A stretch of DNA of 64,000 nt, from assembly GCF_003334385.1 (NCBI RefSeq), contig NZ_QOWN01000014.1, one strand, 5' to 3'. The stretch is from Escherichia coli. GTDB lineage: Bacteria > Pseudomonadota > Gammaproteobacteria > Enterobacterales > Enterobacteriaceae. A model generated the notes under the pieces. That model worked only from the letters and a program-made list of their open reading frames with translations, searched no databases and was not told the origin of the DNA. The translations under genes were made by a program, and so were the position numbers. This document shows, one piece after another, positions 1 through 23,044 of this stretch (positions are counted from its first letter, which is position 1; each line of letters starts with the position of its first letter).

Positions 1-320
<320 letters not shown>

Positions 321-383
321 GCCTCTCATCTGTATAAATTTCGAACTACACTTAACTGGCTTCTCTTAACTGAGGTCACCATC

Positions 384-827
384 ATGCCGTTAAGTCCCTA
401 CCTCTCTTTTGCCGGTAACTGTTCCGACGCGATTGCCTATTATCAACGTACGTTGGGCGCGGAACTGCTCTATAAAATCAGCTTCGGCGAAATGCCAAAA
501 TCAGCGCAGGACAGCGCCGAGAACTGCCCTTCCGGAATGCAATTTCCCGATACCGCCATCGCCCACGCCAATGTGCGCATTGCCGGAAGCGACATCATGA
601 TGAGCGATGCCATGCCGTCAGGAAAAGCCAGCTACTCCGGCTTTACGCTGGTGCTCGATTCGCAACAGGTCGAAGAAGGAAAACGCTGGTTTGACAATCT
701 TGCCGCTAACGGAAAAATCGAAATGGCCTGGCAGGAAACTTTCTGGGCGCATGGCTTTGGCAAAGTCACCGATAAATTTGGCGTACCGTGGATGATTAAT
801 GTCGTCAAACAACAACCAACGCAATAA
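384..827 (+). CDS. yjdN: YjdN/PhnB, glyoxalase-like (VOC superfamily) protein
   Basis: 147-aa ORF MPLSPYLSFAGNCSDAIAYYQ... recognised as PhnB/YjdN; position immediately upstream of phnC. Confidence 0.85.
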   Translation: MPLSPYLSFAGNCSDAIAYYQRTLGAELLYKISFGEMPKSAQDSAENCPSGMQFPDTAIAHANVRIAGSDIMMSDAMPSGKASYSGFTLVLDSQQVEEGKRWFDNLAANGKIEMAWQETFWAHGFGKVTDKFGVPWMINVVKQQPTQ

Positions 828-853
828 CCCGCCGGGAGGCCCGCCCTCCCGCA

Positions 854-920
854 CTGTCATCGAATTCCCGTTAACTCTTCATCTGTTAGTCACTTTTAAT
901 TAACCAAATCGTCACAATAA
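854..920 (+). promoter_or_regulatory. phnC promoter region with Pho box (PhoB-binding CTGTxA-type direct repeats) preceding the -10
   Basis: CTGTCAT at 854-860 and CTGTTAGTCACTTTTAATTAACCAAATCGTCACAAT at 883-918, about 40 bp upstream of the phnC ATG; the phn operon is a classic Pho regulon member. Confidence 0.55.
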
Positions 921-959
921 TCCGCCACGATGGAGCCACTTTTTTAGGGAGGCTGCATC

Positions 960-1748
960 ATGCAAACGATTATCCGTGTCGAGAAGCTCGCCAAAACCTT
1001 CAATCAGCATCAGGCGCTGCATGCGGTTGATCTGAACATTCATCACGGTGAAATGGTGGCTCTGCTTGGGCCGTCGGGTTCCGGAAAATCCACCCTTTTA
1101 CGTCACTTAAGCGGTTTGATTACCGGCGATAAATCTGTCGGTAGCCATATCGAGCTGCTGGGCCGCACAGTCCAGCGCGAAGGCCGCCTGGCCCGCGATA
1201 TCCGCAAAAGCCGCGCCCATACCGGCTACATATTCCAACAATTCAACCTGGTGAACCGCCTGAGCGTACTGGAGAACGTGCTGATTGGCGCGCTCGGCAG
1301 CACGCCGTTCTGGCGCACCTGTTTTAGCTGGTTCACCGGCGAGCAGAAACAGCGCGCGTTACAGGCGCTGACCCGCGTTGGCATGGTGCATTTTGCCCAT
1401 CAGCGCGTTTCCACCCTCTCCGGCGGCCAGCAGCAACGTGTGGCGATTGCCCGTGCGCTGATGCAGCAGGCGAAAGTGATTCTGGCCAATGAACCCATCG
1501 CCTCGCTGGACCCAGAATCAGCGCGCATCGTGATGGACACCCTGCGCGACATCAACCAGAACGACGGCATCACCGTGGTCGTCACGCTGCATCAGGTGGA
1601 TTACGCCCTGCGCTACTGCGAACGCATCGTCGCCCTGCGCCAGGGGCACGTCTTCTACGACGGCAGCAGCCAACAGTTTGATAACGAACGTTTTGACCAT
1701 CTCTACCGCAGCATTAACCGCGTCGAAGAGAACGCGAAAGCTGCCTGA
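960..1748 (+). CDS. phnC: Phosphonate ABC transporter ATP-binding protein PhnC
   Basis: 262-aa ORF with Walker [10 protein letters not shown] and ABC signature LSGGQQQR; matches PhnC. Confidence 0.95.
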
Positions 1749-1772
1749 CATCCCCATCATTGAGGAAAACGA

Positions 1773-2789
1773 ATGAACGCTAAGATAATTGCCTCGCTGG
1801 CCTTCACCAGCATGTTCAGCCTCAGCACCCTGTTAAGCCCGGCGCACGCCGAAGAGCAGGAAAAGGCGTTGAATTTCGGCATTATTTCAACGGAATCACA
1901 GCAAAACCTGAAACCGCAATGGACGCCGTTCTTGCAGGATATGGAGAAGAAGCTGGGCGTGAAGGTCAACGCCTTCTTTGCCCCGGACTACGCGGGCATT
2001 ATCCAGGGGATGCGCTTCAATAAAGTGGATATCGCCTGGTACGGCAATCTGTCGGCGATGGAAGCGGTGGATCGCGCCAATGGCCAGGTCTTCGCCCAGA
2101 CGGTCGCGGCGGATGGATCGCCGGGTTACTGGAGCGTGTTGATCGTCAACAAAGACAGTCCGATCAACAACCTGAACGATCTGCTGGCGAAGCGGAAAGA
2201 TCTCACCTTTGGCAATGGCGATCCTAACTCCACCTCTGGCTTCCTCGTCCCCGGCTACTACGTCTTCGCCAAAAACAATATCTCCGCCAGCGACTTCAAG
2301 CGCACCGTCAACGCCGGGCATGAAACCAACGCGCTGGCCGTCGCCAACAAGCAGGTGGATGTTGCCACCAACAACACCGAAAACCTCGACAAGCTGAAAA
2401 CCTCCGCGCCAGAGAAGCTGAAAGAACTGAAGGTGATCTGGAAGTCGCCGCTGATCCCAGGCGATCCGATCGTCTGGCGCAAGAATCTTTCCGAAACCAC
2501 CAAAGACAAGATCTACGACTTCTTTATGAACTACGGCAAAACGCCGGAAGAAAAAGCGGTGCTGGAACGCCTGGGCTGGGCGCCATTCCGCGCTTCCAGC
2601 GACCTGCAACTGGTGCCGATTCGCCAGCTCGCGCTGTTTAAAGAGATGCAGGGCGTGAAAAGCAATAAAGGACTGAATGAGCAGGACAAGCTGGCAAAAA
2701 CCACCGAGATTCAGGCGCAGCTGGATGACCTGGACCGCCTGAACAACGCGCTAAGCGCGATGAGTTCGGTGAGTAAAGCGGTGCAGTAA
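1773..2789 (+). CDS. phnD: Phosphonate ABC transporter periplasmic binding protein PhnD
   Basis: 338-aa ORF with N-terminal signal peptide (…LLSPAHA/EEQ); matches PhnD. Confidence 0.95.
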   Translation: MNAKIIASLAFTSMFSLSTLLSPAHAEEQEKALNFGIISTESQQNLKPQWTPFLQDMEKKLGVKVNAFFAPDYAGIIQGMRFNKVDIAWYGNLSAMEAVDRANGQVFAQTVAADGSPGYWSVLIVNKDSPINNLNDLLAKRKDLTFGNGDPNSTSGFLVPGYYVFAKNNISASDFKRTVNAGHETNALAVANKQVDVATNNTENLDKLKTSAPEKLKELKVIWKSPLIPGDPIVWRKNLSETTKDKIYDFFMNYGKTPEEKAVLERLGWAPFRASSDLQLVPIRQLALFKEMQGVKSNKGLNEQDKLAKTTEIQAQLDDLDRLNNALSAMSSVSKAVQ

Positions 2790-2791
2790 AT

Positions 2792-2884
2792 CGTAGGTCG
2801 GATAAGACGCCCCGGCGTCGCATCCGACAATGTGCAGGCGTTGATGCCGGATGCGGTGCAAGCACCTTATCCGGCCTACAGACC
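2792..2884. repeat. REP/BIME element between phnD and phnE
   Basis: GTAGGTCGGATAAGACGC…GCGTCGCATCCGACA and GATGCCGGATGCGG…CCTTATCCGGCCTACA palindromic units. Confidence 0.8.
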
Positions 2885-2894
2885 GGAGCCAAAC

Positions 2895-3682
2895 ATGCAA
2901 ACCATCACCATCGCCCCACCCAAGCGCAGCTGGTTCTCGCTTCTGAGCTGGGCCGTTGTACTCGCCGTGTTGGTCGTCTCGTGGCAGGGCGCGGAAATGG
3001 CCCCGCTTACGCTGATCAAAGACGGCGGCAACATGGCGACGTTCGCCGCCGACTTCTTCCCGCCCGATTTCAGCCAGTGGCAGGATTACCTCACCGAAAT
3101 GGCCGTCACGCTGCAAATCGCCGTCTGGGGCACCGCGCTGGCGGTGGTTCTCTCCATCCCCTTTGGCCTGATGAGCGCCGAAAACCTGGTGCCGTGGTGG
3201 GTTTACCAGCCCGTTCGCCGCCTGATGGACGCCTGCCGCGCCATTAACGAAATGGTCTTCGCCATGCTGTTCGTGGTCGCCGTCGGCCTCGGCCCGTTCG
3301 CTGGCGTGCTGGCGTGCTGGCGCTGTTTATCCACACCACCGGCGTGCTCTCCAAGCTGCTTTCCGAAGCGGTGGAAGCGATTGAACCCGGCCCGGTGGAA
3401 GGCATTCGCGCCACCGGTGCCAACAAGCTCGAAGAGATCCTCTACGGCGTGCTGCCACAGGTGATGCCACTGCTGATCTCCTACTCCCTCTATCGCTTCG
3501 AATCCAACGTCCGCTCGGCGACCGTCGTCGGCATGGTCGGCGCAGGCGGGATCGGCGTCACCCTGTGGGAAGCGATTCGCGGTTTCCAGTTCCAACAAAC
3601 CTGCGCCCTGATGGTGCTTATCATCGTCACGGTCAGCCTGCTGGATTTCCTCTCTCAACGGTTGCGTAAGCACTTTATCTGA
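2895..3682 (+). pseudogene. phnE: phnE (phosphonate ABC permease) inactivated by an 8-bp tandem duplication frameshift
   Basis: ORF from ATG 2895 ([13 protein letters not shown]…) leaves frame at ctggcgtg-ctggcgtg (3301-3316); PhnE C-terminal sequence continues in the +2 frame (ORF 3314..3682, …[23 protein letters not shown]…RLRKHFI). Confidence 0.9.
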
Positions 3683-3702
3683 TAAGCGAGGCATTGATAT
3701 CT

Positions 3703-4428
3703 ATGCACTTGTCTACACATCCGACCAGCTACCCAACACGCTATCAAGAGATAGCCGCAAAACTTGAGCAGGAGCTTCGTCAACACTACCGCTGCGGCGA
3801 CTATCTTCCCGCCGAGCAGCAACTGGCAGCGCGCTTTGAGGTGAATCGCCACACCCTGCGCCGCGCCATCGACCAACTGGTGGAAAAAGGCTGGGTACAG
3901 CGCCGTCAGGGCGTCGGCGTGCTGGTGCTGATGCGCCCGTTCGATTACCCGCTCAACGCCCAGGCGCGTTTTAGCCAGAATCTGCTGGATCAGGGCAGCC
4001 ATCCCACCAGCGAAAAACTGCTTTCGGTATTGCGCCCCGCGTCCGGCCACGTCGCTGACGCACTGGGGATTACCGAGGGGGAGAACGTCATCCACCTGCG
4101 CACCCTGCGTCGTGTCAACGGCGTCGCGCTCTGTTTAATCGACCACTACTTCGCGGACCTCACCCTCTGGCCGACGCTGCAACGCTTCGACAGCGGCTCG
4201 CTGCACGATTTTCTGCGCGAGCAAACCGGAATTGCGCTGCGCCGCAGCCAGACGCGGATCAGCGCCCGCCGCGCCCAGGCCAAAGAGTGCCAGCGTCTTG
4301 AAATCCCGAATATGTCGCCGCTGCTGTGCGTGCGCACCCTTAACCACCGTGACGGTGAAAGCAGCCCGGCGGAGTACTCCGTCAGCCTGACGCGCGCCGA
4401 CATGATTGAATTCACTATGGAGCACTGA
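3703..4428 (+). CDS. phnF: GntR-family transcriptional regulator PhnF
   Basis: ORF MHLSTHPTSYPTRYQEIAAKLEQELR… with GntR-type HTH; ATG at 3703 chosen over the upstream TTG of the ORF track. Confidence 0.9.
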   Translation: MHLSTHPTSYPTRYQEIAAKLEQELRQHYRCGDYLPAEQQLAARFEVNRHTLRRAIDQLVEKGWVQRRQGVGVLVLMRPFDYPLNAQARFSQNLLDQGSHPTSEKLLSVLRPASGHVADALGITEGENVIHLRTLRRVNGVALCLIDHYFADLTLWPTLQRFDSGSLHDFLREQTGIALRRSQTRISARRAQAKECQRLEIPNMSPLLCVRTLNHRDGESSPAEYSVSLTRADMIEFTMEH

Positions 4429-4881
4429 ATGCACGCAGATACCGCGACCCGCCAGCACTGGATGTCCGTGCTGGCGCACAGCCAACCGGCTGAACTGGCA
4501 GCACGCCTGAACGCGCTAAACATCACCGCCGACTATGAGGTGATCCGCGCCGCTGAAACTGGCCTGGTACAGATTCAGGCGCGGATGGGCGGCACCGGCG
4601 AACGTTTTTTTGCCGGCGACGCCACGCTGACCCGCGCCGCCGTGCGCCTGACTGACGGCACGCTCGGCTACAGCTGGGTGCAGGGGCGTGATAAACAGCA
4701 CGCCGAACGCTGCGCGCTGATTGACGCGCTGATGCAGCAATCTCGCCACTTTCAAAACTTATCAGAAACCCTTATTGCCCCGCTGGACGCTGACCGTATG
4801 GCACGCATTGCCGCACGCCAGGCCGAAGTGAACGCCAGCCGGGTCGACTTCTTTACGATGGTTCGCGGAGACAACGCATGA
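4429..4881 (+). CDS. phnG: C-P lyase core complex subunit PhnG
   Basis: 150-aa [30 protein letters not shown]…; operon position. Confidence 0.9.
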
Positions 4882-5462
4882 CCCTGGAAACCGCTTTTAT
4901 GCTTCCCGTGCAGGATGCCCAGCACAGTTTTCGTCGCCTGTTAAAGGCCATGAGCGAGCCGGGCGTGATTGTCGCCCTGCATCAGCTCAAACGCGGCTGG
5001 CAACCGCTGAATATCGCCACCACCAGCGTGCTGCTGACGCTGGCCGATAACGACACGCCGGTGTGGCTTTCTACCCCATTAAATAACGATATCGTCAACC
5101 AGAGCCTGCGTTTTCATACCAACGCGCCGCTGGTCAGCCAGCCGGAACAGGCGACCTTCGCGGTGACGGATGAGGCGATTTCCAGCGAACAGCTCAACGC
5201 CCTTTCCACCGGCACCGCCGTTGCGCCGGAAGCGGGTGCGACGCTGATTTTACAGGTCGCCAGCCTGAGCGGCGGACGCATGTTGCGCCTTACTGGTGCG
5301 GGTATTGCCGAAGAACGAATGATCGCTCCGCAGCTGCCGGAGTGCATTCTGCACGAACTCACCGAGCGCCCGCATCCGTTCCCGCTCGGCATCGACCTGA
5401 TCCTGACCTGTGGCGAGCGCCTGCTGGCTATTCCGCGAACCACTCATGTGGAGGTGTGCTGA
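4878..5462 (+). CDS. phnH: C-P lyase core complex subunit PhnH
   Basis: 194-aa [33 protein letters not shown]…; 4-nt overlap with phnG stop. Confidence 0.9.
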
Positions 5463-6520
5463 TGTACGTTGCCGTGAAAGGGGGCGAGAAGGCGATCGAC
5501 GCCGCCCACGCCCTGCAAGAGAGCCGACGCCGAGGCGATACCGATTTGCCCGAACTGAGCGTCGCCCAGATTGAACAGCAGCTTAACCTCGCGGTAGATC
5601 GCGTGATGACCGAAGGCGGCATTGCCGACCGCGAACTGGCGGCGCTGGCGCTGAAACAGGCCAGCGGCGATAACGTTGAAGCGATTTTCCTGCTGCGCGC
5701 CTACCGCACCACGTTGGCGAAGCTGGCGGTAAGCGAGCCGCTCGACACCACCGGGATGCGTCTCGAACGCCGTATCTCCGCCGTTTATAAAGACATTCCC
5801 GGCGGCCAGCTGCTTGGCCCAACCTACGACTACACCCATCGCCTGCTCGATTTTACCCTGCTGGCAAACGGCGAAGCGCCGACGCTGACCACCGCCGACA
5901 GCGAACAGCAGCCGTCGCCGCACGTTTTCAGCCTGCTGGCGCGTCAGGGGCTGGCGAAGTTTGAAGAGGATAGCGGCGCACAGCCGGATGACATCACCCG
6001 CACGCCGCCGGTTTACCCCTGCTCACGCTCCTCCCGTTTGCAGCAGTTGATGCGCGGCGACGAAGGCTATTTGCTGGCGCTGGCCTACTCCACCCAACGC
6101 GGTTACGGGCGCAATCACCCGTTCGCAGGCGAGATCCGCAGCGGCTATATCGACGTGTCGATTGTGCAGGAAGAGCTGGGATTTGCGGTGAACGTCGGCG
6201 AACTGCTGATGACTGAGTGTGAAATGGTTAACGGTTTTATCGACCCGCCGGGTGAGCCGCCGCACTTCACGCGCGGCTACGGGCTGGTGTTCGGCATGAG
6301 CGAGCGCAAAGCGATGGCGCTGGTCGACCGCGCTCTGCAAGCCCCGGAGTACGGCGAGCACGCGACAGGCCCGGCGCAGGATGAAGAGTTCGTGCTGGCA
6401 CATGCCGACAACGTCGAAGCCGCAGGCTTTGTCTCACACCTCAAACTCCCCCACTACGTCGATTTCCAGGCCGAACTGGAGCTACTCAAACGTCTGCAAC
6501 AGGAGCAGAACCATGGCTAA
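5456..6520 (+). CDS. phnI: C-P lyase core complex subunit PhnI (ribosyl-transferring)
   Basis: ORF …[26 protein letters not shown]…; likely GTG start at 5456 (ATG at 5462 is the alternative), overlapping the phnH stop. Confidence 0.88.
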
Positions 6521-7358
6521 TCTGAGCGGCTACAACTTTGCCTACCTCGACGAGCAGACCAAACGCATGATCCGCCGCGCCATCTTAAAAGCGGTGGCGA
6601 TCCCCGGTTATCAGGTGCCGTTTGGCGGGCGCGAGATGCCGATGCCGTACGGCTGGGGAACCGGCGGCATTCAGCTTACCGCCAGCGTGATTGGCGAAAG
6701 CGACGTGCTGAAGGTGATTGACCAGGGCGCGGATGACACCACCAACGCCGTGTCGATTCGCAACTTCTTCAAGCGCGTGACCGGGGTAAACACCACGGAA
6801 CGTACGGACGATGCGACGGTTATCCAGACGCGTCACCGCATCCCCGAAACGCCGCTGACCGAAGATCAGATAATTATCTTCCAGGTGCCAATCCCCGAGC
6901 CGCTGCGCTTTATCGAGCCGCGCGAAACGGAAACCCGCACCATGCACGCGCTGGAAGAGTACGGCGTGATGCAGGTGAAACTGTATGAAGATATCGCCCG
7001 CTTCGGTCATATCGCCACCACCTACGCCTATCCGGTGAAGGTAAATGGGCGCTACGTGATGGACCCGTCGCCGATCCCGAAATTCGATAACCCAAAAATG
7101 GACATGATGCCCGCCCTGCAACTGTTCGGCGCGGGGCGCGAGAAGCGCATCTATGCGGTGCCGCCGTTTACCCGCGTGGAAAGTCTCGATTTCGACGATC
7201 ACCCGTTCACCGTTCAGCAGTGGGATGAGCCATGCGCCATCTGCGGATCGACCCACAGCTATCTTGATGAAGTGGTGCTGGATGACGCCGGAAACCGCAT
7301 GTTTGTCTGCTCCGATACCGATTATTGCCGCCAACAGAGCGAGGCAAAAAACCAATGA
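6513..7358 (+). CDS. phnJ: C-P lyase PhnJ (radical SAM-dependent C-P bond cleavage)
   Basis: [40 protein letters not shown]…CAICGSTHSYLDEVVLDD…; ATG 6513 overlaps the phnI stop. Confidence 0.93.
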   Translation: MANLSGYNFAYLDEQTKRMIRRAILKAVAIPGYQVPFGGREMPMPYGWGTGGIQLTASVIGESDVLKVIDQGADDTTNAVSIRNFFKRVTGVNTTERTDDATVIQTRHRIPETPLTEDQIIIFQVPIPEPLRFIEPRETETRTMHALEEYGVMQVKLYEDIARFGHIATTYAYPVKVNGRYVMDPSPIPKFDNPKMDMMPALQLFGAGREKRIYAVPPFTRVESLDFDDHPFTVQQWDEPCAICGSTHSYLDEVVLDDAGNRMFVCSDTDYCRQQSEAKNQ

Positions 7359-8113
7359 ATCAACCGTTACTTTCGGTCAATAACCTGACCCACCTTTACG
7401 CGCCGGGCAAAGGCTTTAGCGATGTCTCTTTTGATTTATGGCCGGGGGAAGTGCTGGGCATTGTCGGGGAATCCGGCTCCGGGAAGACCACGCTGCTGAA
7501 GTCGATCTCCGCGCGCCTGACGCCGCAGCAGGGGGAAATTCACTACGAGAACCGTTCGCTGTATGCAATGAGCGAGGCCGACCGCCGTCGCCTGCTGCGT
7601 ACCGAATGGGGCGTGGTGCATCAGCATCCACTCGACGGCCTGCGCCGCCAGGTGTCGGCAGGCGGCAATATCGGCGAGCGGCTGATGGCGACCGGGGCAC
7701 GTCATTACGGCGATATTCGTGCCACCGCGCAGAAGTGGCTGGAAGAGGTGGAGATTCCCGCCAACCGGATCGACGACCTGCCGACCACCTTTTCCGGCGG
7801 TATGCAGCAGCGTTTGCAGATTGCCCGCAACCTGGTGACGCATCCGAAGCTGGTGTTTATGGATGAACCGACCGGCGGGCTGGATGTGTCGGTGCAGGCC
7901 CGCCTGCTCGACCTGCTGCGCGGCCTGGTGGTGGAGCTGAACCTCGCGGTGGTGATTGTCACCCATGATTTAGGCGTCGCCCGCCTGCTGGCGGACCGTT
8001 TGCTGGTGATGAAGCAGGGGCAAGTGGTGGAGAGTGGGTTAACCGACCGCGTGCTCGACGACCCGCATCATCCGTATACACAGCTGCTGGTGTCATCGGT
8101 TTTGCAGAATTGA
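7355..8113 (+). CDS. phnK: ABC-type ATPase PhnK (C-P lyase accessory)
   Basis: [18 protein letters not shown]… with Walker [14 protein letters not shown] overlap with phnJ stop. Confidence 0.93.
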
Positions 8114-8117
8114 GCCG

Positions 8118-8212
<95 letters not shown>

Positions 8213-8223
8213 CGAGGCGAAAA

Positions 8224-8904
8224 ATGATTAACGTACAAAACGTCAGTAAAACCTTCATCCTGCACCAGCAAAACGGCGTGCGCCTGCCCGTCCTCAATCG
8301 CGCCTCGCTCACCGTCAACGCGGGCGAATGCGTGGTGCTCCACGGCCATTCCGGCAGCGGCAAATCAACTCTGCTACGCTCGCTGTACGCCAACTATCTG
8401 CCCGACGAAGGTCAAATCCAGATCAAACACGGTGACGAGTGGGTAGACCTGGTCACCGCGCCAGCGCGCAAAGTGGTGGAAATCCGCAAAACCACCGTCG
8501 GCTGGGTGAGCCAGTTTCTGCGCGTCATCCCGCGTATCTCAGCACTGGAAGTGGTGATGCAGCCGCTGCTCGATACCGGCGTTCCGCGTGAAGCCTGCGC
8601 CGCTAAAGCCGCGCGTCTTCTCACCCGCCTGAACGTGCCGGAACGCCTGTGGCACCTGGCACCATCGACATTTTCCGGTGGCGAACAGCAGCGCGTCAAC
8701 ATCGCCCGCGGCTTTATCGTCGACTACCCCATTCTGCTGCTTGACGAACCTACCGCCTCGCTGGACGCCAAAAACAGCGCCGCGGTGGTGGAACTGATTC
8801 GCGAAGCCAAAACCCGTGGCGCAGCCATCGTAGGCATCTTCCATGACGAAGCTGTACGTAATGACGTCGCCGACCGCCTGCACCCAATGGGAGCCTCTTC
8901 ATGA
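8224..8904 (+). CDS. phnL: ABC-type ATPase PhnL (C-P lyase accessory)
   Basis: [27 protein letters not shown]… with Walker [10 protein letters not shown]; the ORF-track upstream extension runs into the REP element, so ATG 8224 is preferred. Confidence 0.9.
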
Positions 8905-10037
8905 TTATCAATAACGTTAAGCTGGTGCTGGAAAACGAGGTGGTAAGCGGTTCGCTGGAGGTGCAGAACGGCGAAATCCGCGCCTTTGCCGAAAGCCAGA
9001 GCCGCCTGCCGGAGGCGATGGACGGCGAAGGCGGCTGGCTGCTGCCGGGGCTGATTGAGCTGCATACCGATAATCTGGATAAATTCTTCACCCCGCGCCC
9101 GAAAGTTGACTGGCCTGCCCACTCGGCGATGAGCAGCCACGACGCGCTGATGGTGGCGAGCGGCATCACCACCGTACTGGATGCCGTGGCAATTGGCGAC
9201 GTGCGCGACGGCGGCGATCGGCTGGAGAATCTGGAGAAGATGATCAACGCCATCGAAGAGACGCAGAAACGCGGCGTCAACCGCGCCGAGCACCGTCTGC
9301 ATCTGCGCTGCGAACTGCCGCATCACACCACGCTGCCGCTGTTTGAAAAACTGGTGCAGCGCGAGCCGGTGACGCTGGTGTCGCTGATGGACCACTCGCC
9401 GGGCCAGCGCCAGTTCGCCAACCGCGAGAAGTATCGCGAATATTATCAGGGCAAATACTCCCTCACTGATGCGCAGATGCAGCAGTACGAAGAAGAGCAA
9501 CTGGCGCTCGCCGCACGCTGGTCGCAGCCGAATCGCGAATCCATCGCCGCCCTGTGCCGCGCGCGAAAAATTGCGCTTGCCAGCCACGATGACGCCACCC
9601 ACGCCCACGTTGCTGAATCTCACCAGCTTGGCAGCGTGATCGCCGAATTTCCCACCACGTTCGAAGCGGCGGAAGCCTCGCGCAAGCATGGCATGAACGT
9701 GCTGATGGGCGCGCCGAATATTGTGCGCGGCGGCTCGCACTCCGGCAACGTGGCGGCCAGTGAACTGGCGCAGCTTGGCCTGCTGGATATCCTCTCTTCC
9801 GACTACTACCCCGCCAGCCTGCTCGATGCGGCATTTCGCGTCGCCGATGACCAGAGCAACCGCTTTACGCTGCCGCAGGCGGTGAAGCTGGTGACTAAAA
9901 ATCCAGCGCAGGCGCTTAATCTCCAGGATCGCGGGGTGATTGGCGAGGGCAAACGCGCCGACCTGGTGCTGGCGCATCGCAAGGACAATCATATTCATAT
10001 CGACCACGTCTGGCGTCAGGGTAAAAGGGTGTTCTGA
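8901..10037 (+). CDS. phnM: PhnM, amidohydrolase-family RPnTP diphosphatase
   Basis: 378-aa [32 protein letters not shown]… with metal-dependent hydrolase HTD motif (LHTDNLDKF). Confidence 0.92.
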
Positions 10038-10594
10038 TGATGGGAAAACTGATTTGGTTAATGGGGCCGTCCGGCTCCGGGAAAGACAGCCTGCTGGCGG
10101 AACTCCGCCTGCGGGAACAAACTCAGTTACTGGTGGCGCATCGCTACATCACGCGCGATGCCAGCGCCGGAAGTGAAAACCATATCGCCCTGAGCGAGCA
10201 GGAGTTTTTTACCCGCGCGGGGCAAAATCTGTTGGCCTTAAGCTGGCACGCTAACGGTCTGTATTATGGCGTCGGCGTCGAGATTGATCTCTGGCTGCAC
10301 GCCGGATTCGACGTGCTGGTCAACGGCTCACGCGCCCATCTGCCGCAGGCGCGGGCGCGCTATCAATCGGCGCTGCTGCCCGTCTGTTTACAGGTTTCGC
10401 CGGAGATCCTCCGCCAGCGCCTGGAAAACCGTGGCCGTGAAAACGCCAGTGAAATTAACGCCCGCCTGGCGCGCGCCGCCCGCTATACTCCACAGGATTG
10501 CCATACGCTCAACAATGACGGCAGCCTGCGCCAGTCGGTCGACACGCTGCTGACGCTGATCCATCAGAAGGAGAAACACCATGCCTGCTTGTGA
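10037..10594 (+). CDS. phnN: Ribose 1,5-bisphosphate phosphokinase PhnN
   Basis: 185-aa ORF with P-loop [14 protein letters not shown] overlap with phnM. Confidence 0.92.
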
Positions 10595-11015
10595 GCTTCG
10601 CCCGGCCACGCAGTACGACACCGACGCGGTTTACGCGCTGATTTGTGAGCTAAAACAGGCGGAGTTTGACCACCACGCGTTTCGCGTGGGTTTTAACGCC
10701 AATCTGCGCGACCCAAACATGCGCTACCATCTGGCGCTGCTTGATGGCGAAGTTGTCGGCATGATCGGCCTGCATTTGCAGTTTCATCTGCATCATGTCA
10801 ACTGGATCGGCGAAATTCAGGAGTTGGTGGTAATGCCGCAGGCGCGCGGTCTGAACGTCGGCAGTAAGTTACTGGCGTGGGCAGAAGAAGAAGCCCGCCA
10901 GGCCGGGGCCGAAATGACCGAACTTTCGACCAACGTGAAGCGCCACGACGCGCACCGTTTCTATCTGCGCGAAGGCTACGAGCAGAGCCACTTCCGCTTC
11001 ACCAAGGCGCTGTAA
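10581..11015 (+). CDS. phnO: Aminoalkylphosphonate N-acetyltransferase PhnO (GNAT)
   Basis: 144-aa [35 protein letters not shown]…. Confidence 0.92.
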
Positions 11016-11016
11016 C

Positions 11017-11775
11017 ATGAGCCTGACCCTCACGCTCACCGGCACCGGCGGCGCACAGGGCGTTCCGGCATGGGGCTGCGAGTGTGCGGCCTGCGCCAGA
11101 GCGCGGCGCTCGCCGCAGTATCGCCGCCAACCGTGCAGCGGCGTAGTGAAGTTTAACGACGCAATCACCCTGATCGACGCCGGGCTGCACGATCTCGCCG
11201 ATCGCTGGTCGCCCGGATCGTTCCAGCAGTTTTTGCTGACGCATTATCATATGGATCACGTCCAGGGGCTGTTTCCGCTGCGCTGGGGCGTTGGCGATCC
11301 GATCCCGGTTTACGGCCCGCCGGATGAACAGGGCTGCGACGATCTGTTTAAACATCCGGGCCTGCTTGATTTCAGCCACACGGTGGAACCGTTTGTGGTG
11401 TTTGATTTGCAGGGGTTACAGGTCACGCCCCTGCCGCTCAACCACTCAAAACTGACCTTCGGTTATCTGCTGGAAACGGCACACAGCCGGGTGGCGTGGC
11501 TGTCTGACACCGCAGGCTTACCGGAAAAAACGCTGAAATTTTTACGCAATAATCAGCCGCAGGTAATGGTGATGGATTGCAGTCACCCGCCGCGCGCGGA
11601 TGCACCGCGTAATCACTGTGATTTAAATACCGTGCTTGCGCTGAATCAGGTTATCCGCTCGCCACGGGTGATTCTGACCCATATCAGCCACCAGTTTGAT
11701 GCGTGGCTGATGGAAAACGCACTACCGTCAGGGTTTGAGGTGGGGTTTGATGGGATGGAGATTGGGGTGGCGTGA
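11017..11775 (+). CDS. phnP: Phosphoribosyl 1,2-cyclic phosphate phosphodiesterase PhnP (metallo-beta-lactamase fold)
   Basis: 252-aa ORF with HxHxDH motif ([11 protein letters not shown]). Confidence 0.92.
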
Positions 11776-11794
11776 TGAGAGGGAATGTGCGCGC

Positions 11795-11902
11795 TGGCCC
11801 CCTCACCCTAACCCTCTCTCCAGAGGGGCGAGGGGACCGATTGTGCTCGATATTGAATATTGCGCTCGTTTTCTCCCTCTCCCCATTGGGGTGAGGGGCG
11901 AT
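11795..11902. repeat. Two GC-rich imperfect palindromes, not REP-type, in the convergent phnP/yjdP spacer
   Basis: CCCCCTCACCCTAACCCTCTCTCCAGAGGGGCGAGGGGACC (about 11798-11839) and TTCTCCCTCTCCCCATTGGGGTGAGGGGCGA (about 11869-11900); arms CCCTC…/…GAGGG are self-complementary. Confidence 0.6.
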
Positions 11903-11921
11903 GCCTGCTCCATACCCAACC

Positions 11922-12251
11922 TCATCGCCCATACTCATCTTCCATTCTCCGCTCTTCATCCTCCAGTTGCCGACGCTCCTGATCAAGCTGGCGCTGGCGA
12001 TCGTCCAGCTGCCTGCGGCGATCTTCAAACTGGCGGCGGCGGTCGTCATATTGTCTGCGCCGATCGTCGCTCACTTCACGCTGCCAGCCGTCGTCGCGCG
12101 AATCTTCATAGTCTCGCCCACGGTCAGGGTTATAAGCGTCATTAATCGCCTGCTGAATATTGCCAATGGTGTCGTCGATAATATCGGCCTGGGCCGGAAC
12201 GGTGGACAGCGTGAGCAGGGTGAATAAAAGAAATAGCGGAAAGCGTTTCAT
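11922..12251 (-). CDS. yjdP: YjdP, small secreted highly charged low-complexity protein
   Basis: 109-aa ORF MKRFPLFLLFTLLTLSTVPAQA… followed by DDRRRQYDDRRRQFEDRRRQLDDRQRQLDQERRQLEDEERRMEDEYGR. Confidence 0.8.
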   Translation of the reverse strand: MKRFPLFLLFTLLTLSTVPAQADIIDDTIGNIQQAINDAYNPDRGRDYEDSRDDGWQREVSDDRRRQYDDRRRQFEDRRRQLDDRQRQLDQERRQLEDEERRMEDEYGR

Positions 12252-12319
12252 TAGCCAACCTCAAAAAGAAACTCTATCCACATTAATCATTACTCATCCA
12301 TGCAAGTAGTGGATGAATC

Positions 12320-12769
12320 TCAATTTCTCCGCTGCTCTATTGCCGTAATCGCCTCCACGCGTTGTTGATGACGACCGCCTTCGTACTGTGCGCCCAGCCA
12401 CGCATCCACAATCATTTTTGCCAGTTCGAGGCCAACCACTCGTGAACCAAAAGCCAGCACGTTGGTGTCGTTATGCTGCCGCGAAAGTTGCGCGGAATAA
12501 GGTTCGCTACAGACGACCGCGCGAATTCCGGCAAACTTGTTCGCCGCTATCGAAATACCGACGCCAGTACCACAAATCAAAATCCCGCCATCAACCTCTC
12601 CGCCAGCAACAGCCAGTGCGACTTGACTGGCGTAATGTGGATAATCAGTACGCTCTGACGACCAGGTTCCTTTATCAATCACTTCAACGCCACGCTCAAC
12701 TAAATGTGCCACTATTTCATGTTTTAAAATGAAACCGACATGATCACAGCCAAATGCAATCTTTTTCAT
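12320..12769 (-). CDS. rpiB: Ribose-5-phosphate isomerase B / allose-6-phosphate isomerase
   Basis: 149-aa ORF MKKIAFGCDHVGFILKHEIVAHLVERGVEVIDKG… (RpiB/LacAB family). Confidence 0.93.
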   Translation of the reverse strand: MKKIAFGCDHVGFILKHEIVAHLVERGVEVIDKGTWSSERTDYPHYASQVALAVAGGEVDGGILICGTGVGISIAANKFAGIRAVVCSEPYSAQLSRQHNDTNVLAFGSRVVGLELAKMIVDAWLGAQYEGGRHQQRVEAITAIEQRRN

Positions 12770-13127
12770 TCATCTTCCCCGTCCGTGCAAAACTTCACAA
12801 TCAAAAAACATTTGTGATGTTAATGAATTAAAAACACCCAAAATCGATGAATTACGCCTTCCTGATCTGTTTTACAGAGTTACATCTGACAGCGCAATAG
12901 CGTTAAAGACACTCACCATCCAGCAACATCTATCATCTAAAAAACCAGAAAAACAAATAACATCATGTTTTTAAACTAATTAAATGAAATAAAATTTTAA
13001 GCCACTCGCCATTGTTCACAATAAAATAAACTTTATAAATTTTATTTTTTTGTGAAGTCGCCAGCATCTTTTCTGTTCTTGCTGTGGTGATATAGTGGCG
13101 TCTTCAATTCAAGGACAAGAGAACGTG

Positions 13128-21556: not shown

Positions 21557-21718
21557 TAAAAATATATACAGCCAATTAATAAATAAAATATATAAGTTAT
21601 GAATGCGGTGGCTGAATAAAGCTATTTTTATTCATCAAGAAAATAGCCATACTGACGCCTTCAATGGATATTGATATTCACTACAGATATTGTTCGCAGC
21701 AGACAGGATGTATTTAAT

Positions 21719-21994
21719 ATGCCAACAGTTCTCTCTCGCATGGCGATGCAACTCAAAAAAACAGCCTGGATAATTCCCGTCTTCATGGTTTCGGGATGCT
21801 CATTATCTCCGGCAATCCCGGTGATCGGCGCTTATTATCCCAGCTGGTTTTTCTGCGCCATTGCCAGCCTTATTTTGACGCTCATCACGAGGCGAGTTAT
21901 TCAGCGGGCAAATATCAATCTGGCATTTGTCGGAATTATTTATACCGCCCTTTTTGCTCTCTACGCCATGCTGTTCTGGCTGGCATTTTTCTAA
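21719..21994 (+). CDS. ytcA: YtcA, small lipoprotein encoded upstream of mdtN
   Basis: ORF MPTVLSRMAMQLKKTAWIIPVFMVSGCSLSP… with lipobox (VSGC). Confidence 0.75.
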   Translation: MPTVLSRMAMQLKKTAWIIPVFMVSGCSLSPAIPVIGAYYPSWFFCAIASLILTLITRRVIQRANINLAFVGIIYTALFALYAMLFWLAFF

Positions 21995-22012
21995 TCTATT
22001 TGAGACGCGCTC

Positions 22013-23044
22013 ATGGAAAGTACGCCGAAAAAAGCTCCTCGCAGTAAATTCCCTGCTCTGTTAGTGGTTGCGTTGGCGCTGGTTGCCCTTGTTTTCGTTA
22101 TCTGGCGCGTAGACAGTGCGCCATCAACTAATGACGCTTACGCGTCAGCAGATACCATTGATGTGGTACCGGAAGTCAGCGGCCGCATTGTAGAACTGGC
22201 GGTCACCGACAACCAGGCAGTCAAACAGGGCGATTTGCTGTTCCGCATCGACCCGCGCCCGTACGAAGCCAATCTGGCGAAAGCTGAAGCCTCCCTCGCG
22301 GCGCTGGATAAGCAAATTATGCTCACCCAGCGTAGCGTTGACGCGCAACAGTTTGGTGCCGACTCGGTTAATGCCACGGTAGAAAAAGCCCGTGCCGCCG
22401 CGAAACAGGCCACAGATACATTACGCCGCACCGAGCCATTACTGAAAGAAGGTTTTGTCTCAGCGGAAGATGTTGACCGTGCAAGAACGGCGCAGCGCGC
22501 CGCAGAAGCGGATCTTAATGCCGTATTGTTACAGGCGCAGTCAGCCGCCAGCGCCGTCAGCGGCGTGGATGCATTAGTTGCCCAGCGTGCGGCGGTCGAA
22601 GCGGATATTGCCCTGACCAAACTGCATCTGGAAATGGCGACCGTTCGCGCGCCGTTTGATGGCCGGGTCATTTCCCTCAAAACCTCCGTCGGGCAATTTG
22701 CTTCTGCCATGCGCCCTATTTTTACCCTAATCGACACTCGTCACTGGTATGTGATCGCCAACTTCCGCGAAACCGATCTGAAAAATATTCGCTCAGGTAC
22801 ACCCGCAACGATTCGCCTGATGAGTGACAGCGGCAAAACCTTCGAGGGTAAAGTGGATTCGATTGGCTACGGCGTGCTACCGGATGACGGCGGCCTGGTG
22901 CTGGGCGGCCTGCCGAAAGTGTCTCGTTCTATTAACTGGGTCCGCGTTGCCCAGCGTTTTCCGGTCAAAATCATGGTCGATAAACCTGACCCGGAAATGT
23001 TCCGCATCGGCGCTTCGGCAGTCGCTAATCTTGAGCCGCAATAA
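22013..23044 (+). CDS. mdtN: MdtN, membrane fusion protein (HlyD/EmrA family) of the MdtNOP efflux system
   Basis: 343-aa ORF with N-terminal TM anchor and coiled-coil region. Confidence 0.9.
   Translation: MESTPKKAPRSKFPALLVVALALVALVFVIWRVDSAPSTNDAYASADTIDVVPEVSGRIVELAVTDNQAVKQGDLLFRIDPRPYEANLAKAEASLAALDKQIMLTQRSVDAQQFGADSVNATVEKARAAAKQATDTLRRTEPLLKEGFVSAEDVDRARTAQRAAEADLNAVLLQAQSAASAVSGVDALVAQRAAVEADIALTKLHLEMATVRAPFDGRVISLKTSVGQFASAMRPIFTLIDTRHWYVIANFRETDLKNIRSGTPATIRLMSDSGKTFEGKVDSIGYGVLPDDGGLVLGGLPKVSRSINWVRVAQRFPVKIMVDKPDPEMFRIGASAVANLEPQ

Follow-up and report, generated by a model that had tools for sequence, protein, structure and literature searches.

Gene content of the phn locus

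The phn operon of Escherichia coli, which codes for carbon-phosphorus (C-P) lyase, lies near the start of a stretch of 64,000 nucleotides (nt) from contig NZ_QOWN01000014.1, hereafter called the window, and we analyzed how its successive cistrons are joined. The sequence of this operon has been available since about 1990. A megablast search identified positions 4000-12500 of the window as the E. coli phn operon with 100% coverage and 99.9% identity, and 5387 of 5426 complete E. coli genomes had a place covering at least 80% of this interval. In RefSeq, the gene tables for strain P13-6 and K-12 MG1655 describe the region as a 14-cistron C-P lyase operon, phnCDEFGHIJKLMNOP, with all genes co-oriented. 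Gene coordinates were taken from the RefSeq annotation and converted to window numbering, and open reading frames (ORFs) were translated from the sequence; all phn ORFs except phnE were free of internal stops. The genes are the following:

960-1748, + strand: phnC (RefSeq)
1773-2789, + strand: phnD (RefSeq)
2895-3682, + strand: phnE, frameshifted (RefSeq)
3703-4428, + strand: phnF, GntR-type regulator, stop TGA at 4426-4428 (RefSeq and junction sequence)
4429-4881, + strand: phnG, C-P lyase core subunit, matching chain A of PDB 4XB6/7Z15 over residues 1-150
4878-5462, + strand: phnH, core subunit (RefSeq)
5462-6520, + strand: phnI, core subunit of 352 amino acids (aa) (RefSeq)
6513-7358, + strand: phnJ, radical S-adenosylmethionine C-P lyase subunit (RefSeq)
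7355-8113, + strand: phnK, ATP-binding cassette (ABC) ATPase that binds PhnJ (RefSeq)
8224-8904, + strand: phnL, second ABC ATPase of the complex, chain K of PDB 7Z15/7Z16, residues 1-226
8901-10037, + strand: phnM, RPnTP diphosphatase, without a complex-partner mark in the published table (RefSeq)
10037-10594, + strand: phnN, ribose 1,5-bisphosphokinase (RefSeq)
10581-11015, + strand: phnO, aminoalkylphosphonate N-acetyltransferase (RefSeq)
11017-11775, + strand: phnP, phosphoribosyl cyclic phosphodiesterase, last gene of the operon (RefSeq)

Cistrons are closely packed from phnF to phnP

We read every junction from phnF to phnP on the sequence. They are given below, all on the + strand, with the intercistronic distance in nt (negative for overlaps) and, where it applies, the Shine-Dalgarno (SD) motif of the downstream gene and its energy.

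F/G, distance 0: TGAATG, the phnF stop abutting the phnG ATG at 4429 (read from sequence)
G/H, 4878-4881, distance -4: ATGA; SD GGAG, -6.6 kcal/mol, ending 7 nt before the start
H/I, 5460-5464, distance -1: TGATG; SD GGAGG, -10.6 kcal/mol
I/J, 6513-6520, distance -8: ATGGCTAA; SD AGGAG, -6.6 kcal/mol
J/K, 7355-7358, distance -4: ATGA; SD GAGG, -8.2 kcal/mol
K/L, 8114-8223, distance +110: two inverted repetitive extragenic palindromic (REP) units
L/M, 8901-8904, distance -4: ATGA; SD GGGAG, -6.5 kcal/mol
M/N, 10035-10042: TGATGATG; TGATG, distance -1 with ATG 10037, or +2 with ATG 10040
N/O, 10581-10594, distance -14: SD AAGGAG, -8.8 kcal/mol
O/P, 11013-11019, distance +1: TAACATG; the weakest SD of the operon, -3.2 kcal/mol

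Thus, seven of the nine junctions between phnG and phnP overlap, as a first-pass annotation made from the sequence had claimed when it reported overlaps at nearly every one of them. The overlaps that it gave for G/H (4 nt), I/J (8 nt), J/K (ATGA), L/M (4 nt) and N/O (14 nt) all match the sequence, and it was correct in naming the REP-bearing K/L spacer and the 1-nt O/P gap as the sole breaks in this span. It erred at M/N, described as an ATGA at 10037: the letters there are an ATG followed by the next ATG, and the stop at 10035-10037 gives TGATG, that is, a 1-nt overlap. The abutment of phnF and phnG was absent from its list, and the close-spaced chain begins one gene earlier than it stated. 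Altogether, eight of the ten junctions from phnF to phnP fall within -8..+6 (0, -4, -1, -8, -4, -4, -1 and +1); N/O and K/L lie outside this range.

Start codons are supported by SD placement and N-terminal conservation

For each gene, we listed the in-frame ATG, GTG and TTG codons within -300..+90 of the start together with their SD energies. We also aligned the N-termini of PhnG to PhnL from 10 operons of Proteobacteria, Firmicutes, Deinococcota, Cyanobacteria and Archaea (E. coli, Sinorhizobium, Variovorax, Nostoc, Mesobacillus, Thermus, Haloarcula, Marinobacter, Paracoccus and a Proteus plasmid). In every gene, the annotated start had the best-placed SD among the in-frame candidates. Conservation in the PhnG-PhnL alignments set in within a few residues of the annotated Met and, for PhnI, PhnJ, PhnK and PhnL, began 0-8 residues from it across phyla. 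Reassignment of start codons, checked in these two ways, left the overlaps in place.

For phnI, the first-pass annotation had hesitated between GTG 5456 and ATG 5462. SD spacing and conservation both favored ATG 5462, and GTG 5456 was ruled out: GGAGG stops 6 nt short of the ATG, so that a start at the GTG would have no usable spacing. The PhnI N-terminal motif M-YVAVKGGE was conserved in 10 of the 10 operons compared. SD energies and N-terminal alignments likewise ruled out ATG 6381 for phnJ and ATG 8125 for phnL, and the alignment backed ATG 8224 as the phnL start. The phnL frame is in fact open through the whole pair of inverted REP units (a bacterial interspersed mosaic element, BIME) up to TTG 8110, which overlaps the phnK stop as TTGA. 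An extension of PhnL to this TTG was ruled out, its SD reaching only -2.4 kcal/mol and its 38 added residues having no counterpart in homologues; the openness of the frame is probably due to chance.

The sole ambiguous start among those examined was that of phnN, at 10037 or 10040. The phnN start of Citrobacter freundii aligns with the second E. coli ATG (10040), and the Citrobacter M/N spacing is +2. In the same species (NZ_CP151862), the Prokaryotic Genome Annotation Pipeline (PGAP)/RefSeq call places phnJ 46 nt after the phnI stop and drops the conserved YNFAYLDEQTKR block. A GTG at 5492 (within 5485-5560 in locus numbering) overlaps the phnI stop by 11 nt and restores YNFAYLDEQTKR; judging from the alignment, the RefSeq phnJ start of this strain was probably called 57 nt too far downstream.

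These data bear on the idea that the overlaps are annotation artefacts, the real starts lying downstream and the genes not overlapping at all. We regard it as highly improbable. Several genes do have downstream in-frame ATG, GTG or TTG codons, the second phnN ATG would turn -1 into +2, and the PGAP call in Citrobacter would part phnI from phnJ. Yet, the downstream alternatives had SD energies that ranged from -0.1 to -5.9 kcal/mol and for the most part stayed above -4, in phnO and phnP no other in-frame start exists, and M/N stays within coupling range even with ATG 10040. The better-placed SDs of the annotated starts and the cross-phylum conservation stand against the idea as well, and so does the conserved block that the Citrobacter phnJ call deletes.

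The packing is conserved and already on record

We then compared E. coli with nine annotated plasmid-borne phn operons of other taxa. I/J and J/K overlap in nine of the 10 operons, Nostoc being the exception; G/H overlaps in 7/10 (6/9 without E. coli), and H/I lies within -13..+4 in all surveyed operons but Nostoc. K/L was the junction most often spaced elsewhere (+33, +11, +13 and +4); in three operons it was at -4 or -1. In Nostoc, the phn genes are spaced by +38 to +155 nt, with inserted genes throughout, in keeping with the small share of overlaps that cyanobacteria are reported to have (Huber et al. 2019, PMC6728339).

A broader view came from the supplement of Huber et al. 2023 (PMC10666635), which gives the distances of COG pairs among 1,695 genomes. 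There, the median distance is -4 for PhnI-PhnJ (q1 -7.2, q3 -3.7, n=204), PhnJ-PhnK (q1 -4, q3 -3.2, n=218) and PhnL-PhnM (q1 -4, q3 +7, n=133). It is -1 for PhnG-PhnH (q1 -4, q3 +1, n=233), PhnH-PhnI (q1 -1, q3 +2, n=230) and PhnM-PhnN (q1 -4, q3 +2, n=109). The K-12 distances tabulated in the same study (0, -4, -1, -8, -4, 110, -4, -1, -14, 1) are identical to those read here. It also flags G/H, H/I, I/J and J/K as complex-forming pairs, and proposes as a general rule the link between short overlap, coupling and complex stoichiometry. Observation and interpretation alike have thus been published before, and the finding is correct but ordinary.

Start sites carry their own SD and are mostly predicted to be open

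The SDs of phnG, H, I, J, K, M, N and O form duplexes of -5.5 to -10.6 kcal/mol with the 3' end of 16S rRNA and end 6-10 nt upstream of the start. Against this, the operon background averages -2.5 kcal/mol, with 8% of positions at or below -6. The SD of each overlapped start sits inside the upstream ORF.

Accessibility of the starts was predicted in silico, on 132-nt fragments only, as the unpaired probability over -15..+3. By this prediction, the phnG, J, K, M and O starts rank in the 83rd-96th percentile and the phnH, I and N starts in the 34th-50th. The phnL initiation site was the most accessible of the operon (P_unpaired 0.715, 98th percentile). No junction start was predicted to be strongly sequestered; masked starts are what one would expect if coupling worked by unfolding an RNA structure. 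The open predicted starts thus argue against this RNA-unfolding variant of coupling, and not against re-initiation.

A BIME separates phnK from phnL

The first-pass annotation had noted a REP element before phnL. It is real, though it consists of a pair of inverted REPs, a BIME spanning ~8114-8205 with arms at 8120-8149 and 8171-8202. The BIME folds as one long hairpin of -60.7 kcal/mol (z = -6 versus shuffles), with a predicted helix that sets in 1 nt past the phnK stop. Each E. coli genome had no fewer than 31 places matching the K/L spacer, and as many as 79, with counts limited to 40 matching pieces per record. The K/L spacer of Citrobacter freundii (+89) holds a REP-like palindrome. Downstream of the hairpin come the SD (GAGG) and the start codon (ATG) of phnL, within the predicted open site. 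Because the BIME hairpin precedes phnL and its ribosome-binding site is predicted to be highly accessible, phnL would most likely be initiated de novo. The BIME directly after the phnK stop, at the junction most often spaced in other phyla, is the least ordinary element of the operon.

One may ask whether the BIME is more than a passive insertion and interrupts the coupling chain deliberately, hindering phnK termination and tuning dosage. Liang, Rudd and Deutscher reportedly proposed in 2015 that a REP near a stop codon could impede termination. If the BIME were such a deliberate break, PhnK output would be lowered relative to the G-H-I-J core, the phnC-K segment of the mRNA would be stabilized, and phnL-P would be put on an independently tuned initiation site. 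The core complex, the two ABC ATPases and the downstream salvage enzymes would then be made at distinct dosages. We hold such a role to be unlikely.

The packing exceeds the genome average

Genome-wide, 707 of 2987 unidirectional E. coli gene pairs (24%) lie within -8..+6 (Huber et al. 2023, PMC10666635). Compared with this rate, the 8/10 of phn gave a binomial P = 3e-4, and compared with the other same-strand pairs of the window, of which 8/29 were within range, a Fisher P = 0.007. Against an assumed, unmeasured within-operon rate of 40-50%, the excess was marginal (P = 0.01-0.055).

Other operons of the window show the same chains. In mdtNOP (~21700-26600, inferred coordinates), mdtN/O is at -1 and mdtO/P at -4; in nrfABCDEFG (~31900-38200, inferred coordinates), nrfB/C, nrfC/D and nrfF/G are at -4 and nrfE/F at -8; yjcH/actP is at -4. 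Taken as a local control, the mdtNOP and nrfABCDEFG chains indicate that the phn pattern is generic. The phn chain is not anomalous: it is a long instance of a widespread arrangement.

Probable termination-reinitiation in two coupled blocks

The overlap layout is the one usual for compact bacterial operons, and it suggests coupled translation without proving it. On balance, we consider it reasonably likely that the phn cistrons, in their standard -4/-1/-8/0/+1 packing, are translated via termination-reinitiation in two coupled blocks. The operon would be transcribed as a single PhoB-dependent mRNA; binding of PhoB upstream of phnC and positive regulation of the operon genes are described in the literature. 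A consensus scan for internal promoters found three promoter-like sites, versus 3.8 expected from shuffles. No convincing internal + strand terminator was found: terminator-like matches were weak, the strongest on that strand being an 8-bp repeat in phnE. A scan of positions 1-13000 at Rfam gathering thresholds for RNA elements at the junctions returned naRNA4/REP matches only, all of them outside the G-P span.

On this mRNA, a ribosome terminating at each upstream stop would melt the local structure, and the ribosome or its 30S subunit would re-initiate at the start a few nt away, aided by the SD within the last codons of the upstream gene. Ribosome flux would thus run along two coupled blocks, phnF-G-H-I-J-K and phnL-M-N-O-P. 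The stable BIME hairpin would part them, and beyond it phnL would need de novo initiation at the exposed ribosome-binding site of its own. Coupling would probably not be absolute but partial, since every start site also seems fit for initiation on its own. The likely benefits would be that the equimolar Phn(GHIJ)2 core is synthesized in matched amounts and assembled at one place and, on a broader view, that a long mRNA has no untranslated gaps.

At the level of sequence, the phn junctions resemble known termination-reinitiation pairs in distance, intragenic SD and conservation. The distances present in phn (-4, -1, -8, 0 and +1) belong to classes in which such coupling has been demonstrated on native E. 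coli pairs. Among five native pairs at -4, coupling was seen in four, and in four of the five re-initiation depended on the SD (Huber et al. 2019, PMC6728339), whereas a spacer of ~20 nt nearly abolished coupling (Huber et al. 2023, PMC10666635). Short distances are also 4.5-fold enriched among E. coli genes for heteromeric complexes. The coupling announced by the first-pass annotation as "tight" is therefore upheld in part: the spacing classes and the SDs fit termination-reinitiation, but tightness, read there from spacing alone, was not established.

Several observations weigh against coupled translation of this kind. No start is masked by predicted structure, as noted above, and the combination of its own SD with an open predicted site makes de novo initiation equally compatible, as in bioBF, which also overlaps by -4, is not coupled and is initiated de novo (Huber et al. 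2019, PMC6728339). A full-text literature search found no mention of coupling in phn. A kan replacement of phnO is reported to be polar on phnP, and a phnO::TnphoA'-9 insertion left phnP without visible impairment, so that the phnO insertion data are ambiguous as to O/P coupling. L/M, M/N and N/O overlap although PhnM, PhnN and PhnO are unmarked as complex partners; indeed, overlaps are as frequent between non-complex enzymes as between core subunits. Conversely, the genes of the complex partners PhnK and PhnL are 110 nt apart, the only large gap in phnF-phnP. Lastly, Nostoc tells us that overlap is not needed for a working C-P lyase gene set.

Much of this would also be expected if initiation were essentially independent at each cistron, the layout being merely compact. 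The overlaps would then be a by-product of compaction and of start/stop drift, coupling would be weak at most, and expression ratios would follow from how strong each initiation site is. Every downstream start has an SD of its own, most junction start sites are at or above background in predicted accessibility, and overlaps extend beyond the complex subunits. The de novo initiation of bioBF, the long spacers of the Nostoc operon, the intact phnP function in phnO::TnphoA'-9 and the generic occurrence of such chains in unrelated operons of the window all point the same way. The accessibility values are, however, in silico predictions, and the behavior of four of the five native -4 pairs speaks for coupling. 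Moreover, six Phn COG pairs with a median of -4 or -1 over 109-233 genomes each are hard to obtain through drift alone. We therefore view independent initiation as a tentative alternative that is somewhat unlikely, and retain termination-reinitiation as the preferred reading.

A further question is why the cistrons are so close. The selective benefit might be the absence of ribosome-free gaps, shielding the ~11-kb transcript from Rho-dependent polarity and decay, with stoichiometry not being the driver. REP elements stabilize upstream mRNA, and in phn the sole long spacer is occupied by a very stable BIME hairpin. Close spacing over phnF-phnK and phnL-phnP spans regulator, complex and free enzymes alike, and the kan replacement of phnO was polar on phnP. 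If continuous ribosome cover were the benefit, one would understand why the overlaps take no account of which proteins interact. Yet, continuous translation needs no overlaps, since 20-24-nt spacers such as those at C/D and E/F would suffice. We consider it quite unlikely that this was the driving benefit; in any case, it answers "why" and not "how", and is compatible with coupling.

Overlaps and C-P lyase stoichiometry

PhnG, PhnH, PhnI and PhnJ form an equimolar hetero-octamer, Phn(GHIJ)2 (PDB 4XB6, 7Z15-7Z19), and PhnK and PhnL bind this core together as a double dimer (PDB 7Z15/7Z16). The first-pass annotation had taken the overlaps to be consistent with stoichiometric assembly of the complex. 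This holds insofar as G, H, I and J, with K, are both overlapped and in the complex. It is not specific, because the free enzymes are overlapped and K/L is spaced: K/L, on the one hand, and L/M, M/N and N/O, on the other, do not fit. The argument is weaker than it appears, since the overlaps run on through enzymes that do not assemble. Furthermore, an overlap would pass on ribosome flux and does not by itself fix a 1:1 output. For refactoring of C-P lyase, for instance in glyphosate/phosphonate degradation or in biosensors, separating the G-H-I-J-K cistrons may disturb subunit ratios, and the phnK/phnL BIME offers a natural break point for engineering.

Other features of the operon and the window

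In phnE, the octamer GCTGGCGT is present in three copies at 3299-3322. Duplication of the 8-bp GCTGGCGT in phnE is described in the literature as the cause of the cryptic K-12-type phn operon. The phnE frame from ATG 2895 ends at a stop at 3462-3464. Because of this early stop, 238 nt ahead of the phnF start stay untranslated and without ribosome cover, upstream of the chain of coupled cistrons.

PhnI has 352 aa here and in strain P13-6, versus 354 aa in K-12 MG1655. Compared with K-12, 6 bp are lost in a short repeat (ERKAMAMALV to ERKAMALV), and a P is changed to Q (IVPEELG to IVQEELG).

Repeats and RNA elements elsewhere in the window are the following:

1-320, + strand: REP325-type array upstream of yjdN, with 3.2 copies of a 100-bp unit in tandem; Rfam naRNA4 (CssrE) matches every copy full-length, at 107-111 bits
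2796-2876, - strand: related naRNA4-type copy in the phnD/phnE spacer
27168-27222: selenocysteine insertion sequence (SECIS) element of fdhF, 87 bits, an ordinary known feature of this chromosomal region
29689-29951, - strand: 113-bp tandem array of 2.3 copies, related to the unit at 1-320; at this place, the strain P13-6 alignment is split into overlapping segments that carry small indels
40409-40480, - strand: related naRNA4-type copy
47718-47858: small RNA sraL, 146 bits, also an ordinary known feature of the region

Comparison with known systems

The closest parallels are the termination-reinitiation pairs described by Huber et al. (PMC6728339, PMC10666635) and reviewed by Brown & Wade 2025 (PMC12548453). 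The same -4 ATGA, -1 TGATG and -8 classes occur in phn, with an intragenic SD upstream of the downstream start, as in these pairs. Like phn, such pairs are enriched in genes for heteromeric complexes. Huber et al. 2023 treated the phn pairs by counting only, and the N/O junction (-14) falls outside their -8..+10 class. A further difference is that, by prediction, the majority of start sites in phn lack structure.

As for the BIME, the classical malE-malF spacer also holds a REP/BIME inside an operon; phn likewise has an inverted REP pair in an intercistronic spacer, with a stable hairpin.

Within the window itself, nrfABCDEFG, mdtNOP and yjcH-actP have runs of -4/-1/-8 junctions like those of phn, theirs lying between subunits of membrane or redox complexes. 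The nrf and mdt chains extend over two to three junctions, whereas phn has five in a row, a break and four more. Unlike them, the phn chain also takes in enzymes that do not assemble together.

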